From the sequence record PP400777: a stretch of 64,000 nucleotides of DNA; one strand, written 5' to 3'. Every line of letters begins with the position of its first letter. The first letter of the stretch is position 1. Positions 1,576 through 29,629 of this stretch are shown one piece after another. The translations under genes were made by a program, and so were the position numbers. The notes below the pieces were generated by a model that did no database searches, had not been told where the DNA came from, and saw only the letters and a program-made list of their open reading frames with translations. The stretch comes from Escherichia phage JM10.

Positions 1576-2046
1576 TTAATCATGTTTCCACACCCCATCA
1601 GTATTTGACCAAAGTCGCTGATTATCTGATCCTCGCCACAGCTTTTTAGTCGGAAGATTTTTCTCATACTTCCCATCAATAATAACATCAACATATTTAA
1701 GCATTTCTAGTTGTTTAATATCTTCAAACTTATATCCTGTCCACAACCAAATGCTTTTATTTGGATAAAGATTTTTAATAGTTTGAACCACAGAGTGAAT
1801 CACATCTCTGTTATCAGGATAGAGAGGGTCACCTCCGGTTATAGTCAATCCTTCTATATAATCATTATTCAAACATTCAATTAATTGTTCTAGTGTTTCA
1901 CCAGTGAATGGAATACCATTTCTAGCATTCCATGTTGATTTATTATAACACCCTTCGCATTTATGCAAACAACCTGTGACGAAAAGAACGACCCTGCAAC
2001 CAGGGCCATTCACAAAATCGCAAGGATAAAATCTATCATAATTCAT
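1576..2046 (-). CDS. nrdG: anaerobic ribonucleotide reductase activating protein (radical SAM)
   Basis: 156 aa; Cys cluster CLHKCEGCYNK; immediately downstream of nrdD. Confidence 0.9.
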   Translation of the reverse strand: MNYDRFYPCDFVNGPGCRVVLFVTGCLHKCEGCYNKSTWNARNGIPFTGETLEQLIECLNNDYIEGLTITGGDPLYPDNRDVIHSVVQTIKNLYPNKSIWLWTGYKFEDIKQLEMLKYVDVIIDGKYEKNLPTKKLWRGSDNQRLWSNTDGVWKHD

Positions 2047-3322
2047 TGGTGTTTAACCCTATGCATGATTTCTTTATTTTTACCAAGATTAAATCCGCGT
2101 TCGTTCGGATTTCCCAAATAACCGCATGTTCTTCTTATGGTGTTCATCTTTTTAGGATCACTTTCTCCACAAACTGAACAAACAAATCCGTTTTCAGTAG
2201 GAGTCATTTCATGGGTACTTCCACATGTAAAACATTTATCTACTGGCATATTAACACCAAAATAATCTAAATGTTGTGCAGCATAATCCCAGACAGCCTC
2301 AAGTCCCTTTAAATTGTTTTTCATATCTGGAAGTTCAACATAAGAAATGTGACCACCTGTCGCAATGAAATGATATGGCGCTTCACGAGAAATCTTTTCA
2401 AACGGAGTAATATTTTCTTCTACTGAAACATGGAAACTGTTAGTGTACCAGCCTTTATCGGTGACATCCTTTACACTTCCATATTTTTCTGTATCAAGTT
2501 TACAGAAGCGATAACAAAGGTTTTCAGCAGGAGTAGAATATAAACTAAAAGCAAATCCAGTTCTTTCAGACCACTGTTTAAGATGAGCATTCATTTTAGT
2601 TAAAATTTCTTGTCCAATATCACGACCGACAAGAATATTCAATTCGTGAATACCGATGTATCCCAAAGACACTGAACTTCTACCGTTTTTAAATAACTCA
2701 ATTATGTCGTCATCAGGTTTAAGACGAACCCCGAATGCACCTTCTTGGTAAAGAATAGGAGCTACAGTTGCTTTAACACCCTTTAAAGAACTAATTCTAC
2801 ACATCAAGGCTTCAAAACACAGATCCATTCGTTCATTAAATAGCTCAACAAATTTCTGTTCATTGAACTGTGTTCCAATATAAGAATCTAACGCAATACG
2901 AGGAAGATTCAATGTTACAACACCAAGATTATTACGTCCGTCAAGAATTTCATTTCCAGTTGAATCTTTCCATACACTCAAGAAACTACGACAGCCCATT
3001 GGAGAAACTGGAACTGAAGAACCAGTAATAGCTTTATTATTCTTAGCTGAAATAATATCAGGATACATCCTTTTGCTTGCGCACTCTAAAGCAAGTTGCT
3101 TAATGTCGTAATTCGGATCGTCTTTATAAAGATTAACGCCTTCTTCAACGAACATAACAAGCTTAGGGAAAATAGGAGTTATCCCATCACGTCCAAGACC
3201 TTTAATACGATTTTTCAGAATTGCTTTCTGAATCATTCGTTCGGTCCAGTCAGTTCCCGTACCAAATGTAATTGTTACAAAAGGAGTCTGTCCGTTTGAA
3301 CTGAAAAGTGTATTTACTTCAT
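2043..3322 (-). CDS. nrdD: anaerobic ribonucleoside-triphosphate reductase, exon 2
   Basis: C-terminal glycyl-radical region; joined to exon 1 gives a 605-aa product; 3' splice site inferred after an intron-terminal G. Confidence 0.8.
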
Positions 3323-3348
3323 CATTATATTCAGCATGAGTCGCAAAT

Positions 3349-4119
3349 TCATGCCCGTTTATATGAAACAACAAAATTTGGATAGTCCATAGATATGCAA
3401 CGTTCTTTTATAGTGCTAGGATGAAAATTTAGCGCTTTAGCTGCTTCTATATAAGACGTATACTTAATACCGTCAACAACCACATATTCAGGAACTTTAT
3501 GAATAGTAGTCTTAATACTCAAAACAAGAGGATGAGTTTCGACTTCACTTTCAGTGCAATTTAAATATTCCGCTGCTTTTTTAAAACTTCTAAAAGTTTT
3601 ATTTTTAAGCTTTATCGATACTTGTTTTTTACTTTTTCGACTATTGATATTATTTTGCACATGTTCCTTAGATCTTCCGTTTTTAGCATAATATTCAGCT
3701 ACAGAAGATTTTATATTGTTTTTATGAGATTCGGATAACACTTTACCCTTATGAGCATCTCTTAATTTTTGAATATGTTCTTCAGTATCCGGATGCTTAT
3801 AAAACTTTTTACCGCCTATGGATTTATTTAAACATTTTTTGCTATAAAAATATTTACGTATGACCTCTTCTTCATGTTTTAATGCATCTTTATAACTATC
3901 AAATGTTTTTAAAATTATCCATTTAGTAGGTGTATCAGTTTTTAAGCGTTCATTTATATACTTAGATGACGTTGTGTAAGTTTTCCAGTTTGTGGGCTTG
4001 TTTTTAATTGTTCTAAATTTTTTATAACCGATATAAATGTCGCCATTAGAAAACTTAACTAAGTATGTAAATGCGTCTTTATCTTTTATTTTAGTACAAC
4101 GTCTTTTTATCCATTTCAT
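3349..4119 (-). CDS. intron-encoded GIY-YIG homing endonuclease (I-TevII-like)
   Basis: 256 aa; N-terminal TYL..(x8)..IYIG module; C-terminal NUMOD-like DNA-binding repeats; lies inside the nrdD intron. Confidence 0.65.
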   Translation of the reverse strand: MKWIKRRCTKIKDKDAFTYLVKFSNGDIYIGYKKFRTIKNKPTNWKTYTTSSKYINERLKTDTPTKWIILKTFDSYKDALKHEEEVIRKYFYSKKCLNKSIGGKKFYKHPDTEEHIQKLRDAHKGKVLSESHKNNIKSSVAEYYAKNGRSKEHVQNNINSRKSKKQVSIKLKNKTFRSFKKAAEYLNCTESEVETHPLVLSIKTTIHKVPEYVVVDGIKYTSYIEAAKALNFHPSTIKERCISMDYPNFVVSYKRA

Positions 4120-4148
4120 TGTTTCACCTCGTATTCATAAGATAATCT

Positions 4149-4156
4149 TATTTATA
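4149..4156 (-). promoter_or_regulatory. T4 late promoter TATAAATA inside the intron, upstream of the endonuclease ORF
   Basis: exact TATAAATA on minus strand about 30 nt upstream of the ORF start. Confidence 0.5.
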
Positions 4157-4367
4157 CAAGATGACTGCTGCATGTCGCCATGCAGATTAGACTATATCTT
4201 CATCTTTCGATGCCGGCCGTTTCGAATAGCATTAGCTTCTATTCTACACCGCTACATTCATCACGGTTAGTCGTTAGGCATTTAGTTCAAAAGAACATTT
4301 AGCACGGGATTGTCTACTAGAGAGGTTCCCCGTTTAGACCGGTTTTACATGAGCCTGAATTAAATTA

Positions 4368-4905
4368 ACTCATACGCCTGGAATGCATCGTATACATCTT
4401 TTTCTGTTTTAGATTGAGCATAATTCAACGCATCAGCGATTTGCCATTTTTCTGCATCCTCAATATGTTTTGCATAGGTGCGTTTAACATAAGGAGAAAG
4501 AACTTTATCTACATTCGCAAATGTAGTTCCGCCATACTGGTGTGAAGCAACTTGTGCGGTAATTTGTGCCATAATTGCAGTAGCAACACCAATAGATTTA
4601 GGCGTTTCAATTTGAGCATTGCCTAATTTAAATCCATTCTCAAGCATCCCCTTTAAATCGACTAAACAGCAATTGGTAAACGGAAGAGCAGGAGAATAAT
4701 CAATATCATGCATGTGAATGATTCCACTTTCATGCGCATTCATAATAAAAGACGGGACCATATTTTTGGCAATGTGCTTAGACACAATACCAGCCATAAG
4801 GTCCCGTTGAGTTGGAAAAACACGAGAATCTTTATTAGCATTCTCGTTTAAAAGATCTTTATTAGTTTTATGAATCAGTCCTTCAATTTCTTTTTCAATT
4901 TTCAT
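4368..4905 (-). CDS. nrdD: anaerobic ribonucleoside-triphosphate reductase, exon 1
   Basis: N-terminal NrdD sequence; frame stops just inside the intron. Confidence 0.8.
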
Positions 4906-29472: not shown

Positions 29473-29549
29473 TGGTCGAGGCAGAAGGATTCTAACCTTC
29501 AACCTACGGATTAGAAATCCGTTGCTCTATACAATTGAGCTATGCCTCG
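29473..29549 (-). tRNA. tRNA-Arg (anticodon UCU), CCA encoded
   Basis: hand-folded cloverleaf: acceptor CGAGGCA/TGCCTCG, D-stem GCTC/GAGC, anticodon stem ACGGA/TCCGT, loop TTTCTAA, T-arm GAAGG-TTAGAAT-CCTTC. Confidence 0.75.
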
Positions 29550-29555
29550 AATATA

Positions 29556-29629
29556 TGACCCAGACCAGATTCGAACTGGTAACCTTTCCCTTATGAGGGG
29601 ACTGCTGCTAACCATTGAGCTACAGGGCC
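29556..29629 (-). tRNA. tRNA with CAU anticodon (Met or Ile2-type)
   Basis: hand-folded: acceptor GGCCCTG/CTGGGTC (one mismatch), anticodon loop CTCATAA, T-arm ACCAG-TTCGAAT-CTGGT; 6 nt from tRNA-Arg. Confidence 0.65.

Follow-up and report, generated by a model that had tools for sequence, protein, structure and literature searches.

The nrdD gene of Escherichia phage JM10 is very probably interrupted by a mobile, self-splicing group I intron of the IA2 type, which lacks P2, carries P7.1 and P7.2, and occupies the site of the nrdD (sunY) intron of phage T4. The element is a diverged allele, at that same site, of the well-known T4 nrdD (sunY)/I-TevII arrangement and belongs to its lineage. Since the late 1980s, textbooks have used the T4 nrdD/sunY intron and its endonuclease I-TevII to illustrate self-splicing and intron homing. 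The window that we analyzed, a stretch of 64,000 nt from record PP400777, derives from a T4-like phage (Tequatrovirus), and all of the nrdD and intron features lie on its minus strand (Table 1). Our observations concern the anatomy of the locus, its homology to known introns, covariation in the RNA, the fold of the encoded protein, and the distribution of the allele in phage populations.

Exons, intron boundaries, and ribozyme core

The initial annotation had described two nrdD reading frames 1045 nt apart, with exon 1 ending in U and the intron ending in G, and we find exactly this arrangement. The exon 1 ORF, which runs from 4905 to 4360, terminates as ...DAFQAYE-LI*, with U4368 as the final exon base. 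In the unspliced transcript, this frame continues through two extra codons to a UAA at 4362–4360, within the first eight bases of the intron, an arrangement that would keep ribosomes out of the core. The exon 2 frame is read from 3320 down to 2043. Joining 4368 to 3322 creates the sequence GAG U|AU GAA and the peptide ..AYE-Y-EVNTLF.. in an 1818-nt ORF of 605 aa with one stop, precisely the length that had been claimed for this join, and the uninterrupted nrdD of phage T2 is likewise 1818 nt long. The ligated exon junction is predicted to read ...GCGUAUGAGU|AUGAAGUAAAU.... Residues 1–605 of the spliced product are collinear with residues 1–605 of the crystallised T4 NrdD (PDB 1H78) in one unbroken alignment scoring 1397 bits. 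The Pfam NRDD profile is divided between the two exons, with positions 1–141 matching exon 1 (E = 3e-40) and positions 145–562 matching exon 2 (E = 5.5e-123), where Gly_radical is matched as well.

Table 1. Positions of the nrdD exons, the intron, and the elements within it, numbered along the window
Feature	Position	Strand	Remarks
nrdD exon 1	4368..4905	(-)	Codons 1-179 and first base of codon 180; from ORF list and Pfam NRDD
Group I intron	3323..4367	(-)	1045 nt; subgroup IA2-like; starts after U4368, last base G3323
nrdD exon 2	2043..3322	(-)	Last two bases of codon 180 to stop codon; includes glycyl-radical domain
Ribozyme core	4165..4373	(-)	Rfam RF00028; helices placed by comparison with T4 nrdD and td introns
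P1	4373-4368 / 4354-4349	(-)	Exon AUGAGU / guide GCUCAU; U.G pair at splice site
P3	4342-4337 / 4218-4213	(-)	
P4	4333-4328 / 4309-4304	(-)	
P6a	4296-4285	(-)	Full span
P7	4272-4268 / 4194-4190	(-)	GACUA / UAGUC; guanosine-binding helix
P7.1	4267-4248	(-)	Full span; ACCG/CGGU
P7.2	4244-4224	(-)	Full span; GAAUAG/CUAUUC
P8	4212-4201	(-)	Full span
P9	4184-4169	(-)	Full span
Hairpin over Shine-Dalgarno	4124..4164	(-)	RNA fold
T4 late-promoter consensus TATAAATA	4149..4156	(-)	30 nt upstream of ORF start
Intron ORF	3349..4119	(-)	256 aa; I-TevII-like GIY-YIG homing endonuclease
3'-terminal RNA domain	3323..3362	(-)	AAACGGG, hairpin GCAUGA/UCAUGC (3354-3334), CUGAAUAUAAUG ending in terminal G

When positions 3200–4500 are searched with laxer filters, the Rfam group I intron model (Intron_gpI, RF00028) matches 4403..4168 on the minus strand over its full length (model positions 1–253 of 253) with a score of 70.9 bits (E = 1e-17), above the gathering score of 50 bits. 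A group I core fold is therefore present in 4120–4367, the interval that had been named for this test beforehand. A default gathering-mode Rfam scan of the whole window returned two tRNAs only and missed the intron; this miss is an artefact of filtering and not an absence of the intron. In addition to the helices listed in Table 1, we located P5 and P6, and P2 is absent. The signals at both splice sites are intact, with U4368 paired to G4354 in P1 and G3323 as the last base of the intron.

We aligned five introns, namely those of the window, T4 nrdD, T4 td, Salmonella phage D1-2 nrdD, and Escherichia phage navn nrdD (intron 2). Across this alignment 96.1% of the pair cells are canonical, and both sides have changed in 25 of 58 pairs. 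None of 500 shuffles attained any of the five covariation measures, and controls slid by one to three columns were only 34–41% paired. Relative to the T4 nrdD intron, 39 of 57 pairs are identical, 17 carry compensatory double changes, one differs on a single side (a change of the G-C to G-U type), and none is broken. The structure supported in this way runs from P3 to P9 and includes the P3/P7 pseudoknot. Both P7.1 and P7.2 show compensatory changes with respect to T4, while P7 is invariant across the aligned introns and hence uninformative for covariation. P1 also covaries (UUGAGU/GCUCAA) in two metagenome relatives, L013 and L016. The earlier proposal of a group I intron in nrdD is thus upheld both by an Rfam score above the gathering level and by covariation in all of the variable helices. 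The 3'-terminal domain, 40 nt in length, overlaps the last codons of the intron ORF together with its stop codon, which forms part of the 5' arm of the terminal hairpin. This domain is common to the T4 nrdD, T4 td, D1-2, and navn introns, with five of the six hairpin pairs changed on both sides.

By analogy with its T4 homolog, the intron would be expected to splice itself in a guanosine-dependent manner. In the mechanism that we propose, nrdD would be transcribed through the intron, and the ribosome translating exon 1 would halt at the UAA eight bases into it. The core of ~200 nt (P1–P9) and the 40-nt 3'-terminal domain would fold around the looped-out ORF. Guanosine attack would then take place after the U.G pair of P1 (at U4368), and ligation of the exons after the terminal G (3323) would produce the mRNA for the 605-aa NrdD.

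The intron ORF and its predicted control

The ORF within the intron is free of frameshifts and premature stops and is full length relative to T4 I-TevII, with which it shares 56% identity and 72% similarity (256 residues against 258, with two single-residue gaps). It divides into a catalytic region at residues ~15–105, a helical linker at ~110–160, and two DNA-binding modules of the NUMOD1/HTH type at ~163–245. The Pfam SegE_GIY-YIG family (PF19835) is matched with 26.6 bits, narrowly over its cut-off of 25, and NUMOD1 with 25.3 bits against a cut-off of 22.8. The canonical Pfam GIY-YIG family (PF01541) gave no match to the ORF (E = 0.9), and PF19835 itself matches 23 of the 41 family members that we aligned. 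PHROGs assigns the ORF to a family of homing endonucleases (E = 3.6e-29). Among 5.8 billion proteins, a word-indexed search recovered its own cluster and the I-TevII cluster only. Exhaustive searching with a profile yielded 944 relatives at E ≤ 1e-3, of which just three reached E ≤ 1e-30.

In the alignment of 41 relatives, Tyr29, Gly31, and Glu83 are invariant, and Tyr19, Tyr48, Ser51, Ser52, and Asn98 are nearly so, with Tyr19 and Asn98 conserved in at least 90%. These residues appear to represent the GIY and YIG motifs together with the motif Glu and Asn. No equivalent of I-TevI Arg27, the classical GIY-YIG arginine, could be placed in the ORF with confidence. Sequence searches with the ORF against PDB chains and NCBIfam returned no match, and a comparison at the level of the fold was therefore needed. 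The AlphaFold model built on the same alignment has a pLDDT of 91.7 and displays the GIY-YIG alpha/beta fold; its best match is the GIY-YIG catalytic domain of I-TevI, and, in its C-terminal half, I-HmuI and I-TevI are matched through their DNA-binding domains. The family matches, the fold, and the pattern of conservation together bear out the earlier description of an apparently intact 256-aa ORF with a GIY-YIG-like N terminus and NUMOD-like C-terminal repeats.

The ORF begins 7 nt after a Shine-Dalgarno sequence, GAGGUGA (4130–4124), which is contained in the 3' arm of an 11-bp hairpin whose 5' arm holds the start of the late-promoter sequence TATAAATA. The fold has a predicted energy of -19.4 kcal/mol (z = -4.9), and none of 200 shuffles was equally stable. 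The initial annotation was correct in placing an exact late promoter at 4149–4156, and its position is homologous to that in T4. Because the octamer occurs 16 times in the window against 7.9 copies expected by chance, its presence alone is weak evidence, and its position is what counts. The T4 nrdD intron has TATAAATA at the homologous place and a homologous hairpin, CCUCGUAU/AUACGAGG. [quoted passage not shown] By comparison with the T4 homolog, we infer a similar control for this ORF: in early transcripts its ribosome-binding site would be locked in the hairpin, and late transcripts, starting just downstream of TATAAATA, would lack the 5' arm and become translatable.

The characterized activity of I-TevII (PMC2988022) and the patchy distribution of the intron suggest that the ORF product cleaves intron-less nrdD and drives homing. 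In mixed infections, the endonuclease would cut an intron-less nrdD near the insertion site, and repair from the intron-bearing copy would spread the intron along with closely flanking exon markers. Such activity is not guaranteed in every lineage, as some sister copies of the ORF appear frameshifted or deleted. The idea, raised for I-TevII, that the endonuclease recognizes an "operator" resembling its homing site ahead of its own ORF, or that it invaded there (PMC2988022, PMC3984707), is unsupported by sequence alone in this intron. The best ungapped match to the homing site, CGTATGAGTATGAAGTAA against CTTATGAATACGAGGTGA, agrees at 13 of 18 positions and lies just upstream of the ORF, in the expected place; 370 of 500 shuffled homing sites match equally well somewhere in the intron.

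The exon sequence around the insertion site differs between alleles. Four intron-less alleles (those of T2, KarlGJung, and two Mosigvirus phages) read UAUGAAUAUGAAGUAAAUACUCU. The last complete codon of exon 1 is GAG in both of the intron-bearing alleles and GAA in the intron-less ones; the G of GAG pairs with a C of the guide, where the A of the intron-less codon would leave an A:C mismatch in P1. Relative to the intron-less consensus, exon 2 of the window differs at +14, +17, and +20, and that of T4 has six differences between +8 and +20. These differences cluster in the region where I-TevII reportedly cuts, making a double-strand break with 2-nt 3' overhangs ~13–15 bp downstream of the insertion site. 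Such placement would fit tracts of co-conversion, or else an exon that has adapted to its intron.

Distribution of the allele and alternative readings

The 1045-nt stretch is 100% identical in Shigella phage JK45, Escherichia phage IME537, and other phages, and at a coverage of at least 80% and an identity of at least 99%, this allele is present in 43 deposited phage records from several countries. The T4 allele is found in 25 records, many of which are laboratory stocks of T4, and approximately 619 of 689 nrdD junctions in the phage collection are uninterrupted. In phage 215Ecol030PP, the same intron has lost ~558 nt from inside the ORF but retains an intact ribozyme and 3' domain. Frameshifted copies of the ORF seem to occur in a few records, and several records with an intron of 1046 nt have its ORF annotated as two fragments. 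Deleted and frameshifted copies represent a stage of decay through which homing-endonuclease genes are expected to pass, and the population pattern as a whole is typical of a homing element. More distant relatives of the ORF (37% identity) are encoded on metagenome contigs inside Rfam-positive group I introns scoring 65.9–81.5 bits. These metagenome introns interrupt nrdD at the same codon (..LE|YE(I/V)NTLH..), within exons that are much more diverged, which indicates that intron, endonuclease, and site have long been associated, in several lineages.

In most GenBank records, the locus is annotated as two NrdD coding sequences, the second starting from a UUG at 3374 inside the intron, and the intron itself is unmarked. 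The ORF is labeled "I-TevII homing endonuclease" in the JK45 record and "intron-associated endonuclease 2" elsewhere. Our literature search, which covered sources other than the Sandegren and Sjoberg papers on intron distribution in T-even phages, yielded no description of this allele. Being of a known kind, with dozens of deposited genomes already carrying this allele, the element has little weight as a discovery. Its practical value lies in annotation, given that nrdD is split in the records, that a spurious UUG start has been called, and that the default Rfam scan misses the intron.

The two annotated coding sequences raise the alternative that nothing is spliced at all, and that an endonuclease cassette has split nrdD into two polypeptides that reassemble. 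The nrdA gene of Aeromonas phage Aeh1, split by mobE, reportedly works in this way. The start codon on which such a reading depends lies within the endonuclease ORF, however, and no Shine-Dalgarno sequence was seen before it by inspection; the stretch between the exons is a group I ribozyme supported by covariation, the two exon frames fit together exactly, and the homologous T4 intron has been established experimentally as self-splicing (PMC2988022). We regard a split gene of this sort as having almost no probability. Scarcely more credible is a splicing-defective relic that has left nrdD a pseudogene, for which the relevant consideration is that selection on the gene could be relaxed. The nrdD gene is dispensable for aerobic growth. 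Both exons are nonetheless intact and 95–97% identical to those of T4, none of the 57 helix pairs is disrupted relative to T4, and P7, the U.G pair, and the terminal G are all preserved. With a real ribozyme, exact joining of the frames, unbroken helices, and intact exons, we reject both of these readings.

An inactive ORF product in a functional ribozyme deserves more weight, though we consider it unlikely. The ORF would then be a decaying passenger or encode a DNA-binding autorepressor or maturase-like protein, and the intron would be inherited only vertically or by recombination. Homing-endonuclease genes do decay once fixed, and the internal deletion in the sister phage, the paired ORF fragments annotated in several records with a 1046-nt intron, and the marginal match to GIY-YIG models are all in keeping with such a state. 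The ORF of the window, however, spans the full length of the active I-TevII and is collinear with it, and it retains the family-invariant Tyr29, Gly31, and Glu83 and the near-invariant Tyr19 and Asn98 in a confident model with the GIY-YIG fold. An identity of at least 99% over 43 genomes, when most relatives are intron-less, also fits recent spread. These observations argue for the reading that we prefer, a mobile intron whose endonuclease is probably functional in this phage.

Comparison with known systems

The closest known counterpart is the T4 nrdD (sunY) intron with I-TevII. The insertion site, GAGU|AUGAAG, is identical in the two, as is the guide GCUCAU, and both introns lack P2. In T4, as here, the ORF lies 3' of P9, its end overlaps the 3'-terminal hairpin, and the exon 1 frame is stopped within the first 8 bases of the intron. 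The introns are 1045 nt here and 1033 nt in T4, and the endonucleases are 256 and 258 aa. Although the exons are ~95–97% identical to those of T4 (~96% for exon 1), the intron is far more diverged, with the ribozyme ranging from 25 to 89% identity among its helix-bearing segments. The JM10 intron has a longer P7.2, a P8 that consists of a 4-bp GAAA hairpin, and an additional inner stem in the hairpin over the ribosome-binding site. A further difference from T4 is that mobC does not follow nrdD in the window. Those features of the lineage that can be read from sequence are present, with the exception of a match to the canonical Pfam GIY-YIG profile and the catalytic arginine. The scientific value of the allele, modest as it is, comes partly from adding a second full-length lineage to the I-TevII family, which otherwise stands isolated, and it should be useful for structure–function comparison.

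The T4 td intron, which encodes I-TevI, has the same IA2 core. Intron positions 30–71, a 42-nt segment comprising P4-P5-P6, are 100% identical between the two, and the same segment is identical to td introns in ~300 records. The td intron also shares the 3'-terminal domain ...CUGAAYAUAAUG and has a GIY-YIG endonuclease under late-promoter and hairpin control (PMC2988022). It differs from the JM10 intron in its host gene, in its P1, in the presence of P2, and in the location of its ORF, which is in the loop of P6a rather than after P9. I-TevI further differs in matching the canonical GIY-YIG Pfam model and in having a zinc-finger linker.

Related IA2 cores, with nearly the same guide GCUCAU, are found in the nrdD introns of Felixounavirus (Salmonella phage D1-2) and Vequintavirus (Escherichia phage navn). 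The host gene is again nrdD in these different phage families, but the intron interrupts another codon (..PMG|C..), and the ORF or its remnant is situated in the P6 loop. The navn ORF is unnamed; Felixounavirus relatives of D1-2 annotate an HNH homing endonuclease there, while no intron ORF is called in D1-2 itself. Among endonucleases outside introns, those of the Seg type (SegE, PF19835) belong to the same catalytic subfamily, with the motif order FTY...YIG...Y.SSK...E...LN followed by NUMOD modules. Unlike the JM10 ORF, the Seg enzymes are encoded between genes and not in a ribozyme, and they cut away from their own gene (PMC2988022).

Compared segment by segment, the ribozyme core of JM10 is a mosaic that is td-like in P3–P6 and like the Felixounavirus and Vequintavirus introns in P7.1. 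The P1 region is closest to T4 nrdD (83%); the P3–P6 segment is closest to T4 td (88%), ahead of T4 nrdD; and the P6'-P7-P7.1 segment is 98% identical to the Felixounavirus and Vequintavirus nrdD introns. Its P7.2, P8, and terminal hairpin are unique to this allele. We tentatively raise the possibility, which we would not call probable, that this is a natural mosaic assembled by recombination among the introns of co-resident or co-infecting phages, with P3–P6 derived from td, P7.1 from Felixounavirus or Vequintavirus, and P1 and the ORF from an nrdD/I-TevII intron, and that the target preference of the endonuclease has shifted. If this is so, two rival introns would compete for a single nrdD site in natural Tequatrovirus populations, which would lend themselves readily to work on how introns compete with one another and shuffle their domains. 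The only points that we consider mildly new are that the intron core is a mosaic and that two intron alleles share a single insertion site, both of which the JM10 element illustrates clearly.

Relatives of the intron in other nrdD genes

Related IA2 introns also split nrdD in unrelated coliphage and Salmonella phage families, as illustrated by the sequence pieces from the Salmonella phage D1-2 (L006) and the Escherichia phage navn (L007), the latter with at least two introns in this gene (see the table). The D1-2 intron and navn intron 2 occupy an insertion site (..PMG/C.., with the slash marking the insertion) that differs from that of the window's intron; their guide sequence is nearly the window's GCUCAU, with AUGGGU on the exon side of the junction. 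In Felixounavirus relatives of D1-2, an HNH endonuclease is annotated at the position of the D1-2 intron.

In contigs from metagenomes (L013, L014 and L016-L018), we observed endonucleases that are 37% identical to the window's ORF, housed in group I introns that Rfam recognises and that interrupt nrdD at the window's own codon. The exons of these phages are far more diverged (..AFQGLE/YEINTLH..). The presence of such endonucleases in same-codon introns of diverged phages shows that the intron-endonuclease pair has at least four lineages. The intron of the Escherichia phage 215Ecol030PP (L003) corresponds to that of the window minus ~558 nt within the endonuclease ORF and keeps the ribozyme core, the promoter/hairpin and the 3' domain; it is a decay derivative without the endonuclease.

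Features of the window and of related phage sequence pieces
Record	Coordinates	Feature
Window	2043-2046	ATGA, nrdD stop and nrdG start
Window	3303-3322	exon 2, first 20 nt
Window	3349-3374	overlap of second NrdD CDS with endonuclease ORF
Window	3374	UUG start of second NrdD CDS
Window	4297-4338	42-nt segment identical to td intron (intron nt 30-71)
Window	4369-4371	last full exon-1 codon
Window	29476-29629	two tRNA genes, minus strand
L003, Escherichia phage 215Ecol030PP	1650-2130	intron lacking ~558 nt
L006, Salmonella phage D1-2, Felixounavirus	2340-2670	IA2 intron in nrdD
L007, Escherichia phage navn, Vequintavirus	1350-1640, 1918-2670	IA2 introns in nrdD

Flanking exon bases and the shared core segment

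The window and T4, the two alleles with an intron, have GAG as the last full codon of exon 1, and it is this GAG that completes P1; four intron-less alleles have GAA. There is also a cluster of synonymous differences in exon 2, within its first 20 nt.

Within P4-P5-P6, a stretch of 42 nt matches the td intron with 100% identity in ~300 T4-like phage records, and many genomes with the window's nrdD intron also carry a second copy, giving two places per record. This shared stretch is a potential substrate for intron-intron recombination, and it is a sign of mosaic origin.

Detection and annotation

When all of the window (1-64000) was scanned with Rfam in its default gathering mode, the output contained no group I intron. 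With laxer filters on 1.3 kb at 3200-4500, the group I model scored 70.9 bits, above its gathering score. Rfam gave no match at all to the td intron of T4, in which the intron's own ORF interrupts the core. Introns of this kind will thus escape routine annotation pipelines.

Many GenBank records contain a second NrdD CDS that begins at an intron-internal UUG and overlaps the end of the endonuclease ORF; because the exons were left unjoined, this start is an annotation artefact. The navn record annotates nrdD as four or five fragments, while in that of D1-2 a misc_feature is the sole annotation of nrdD and no intron ORF is called.

Elsewhere, Rfam placed two tRNA genes (72.6 and 54.0 bits), the only tRNAs in the window. 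The corresponding pair in the Shigella phage JK45 is annotated as tRNA-Arg and tRNA-Met. The same region of T4 contains eight tRNA genes.

The nrdD-nrdG junction

Since the stop codon of nrdD overlaps the start codon of nrdG, the window has no mobC between the two genes. Two phages with the window's intron, SA20RB and 215Ecol030PP, do carry mobC at this junction. Its presence or absence among carriers of the same intron indicates that the intron assorts independently of the free-standing endonuclease next to it. In T4, unlike in the window, mobC lies between nrdD and nrdG.
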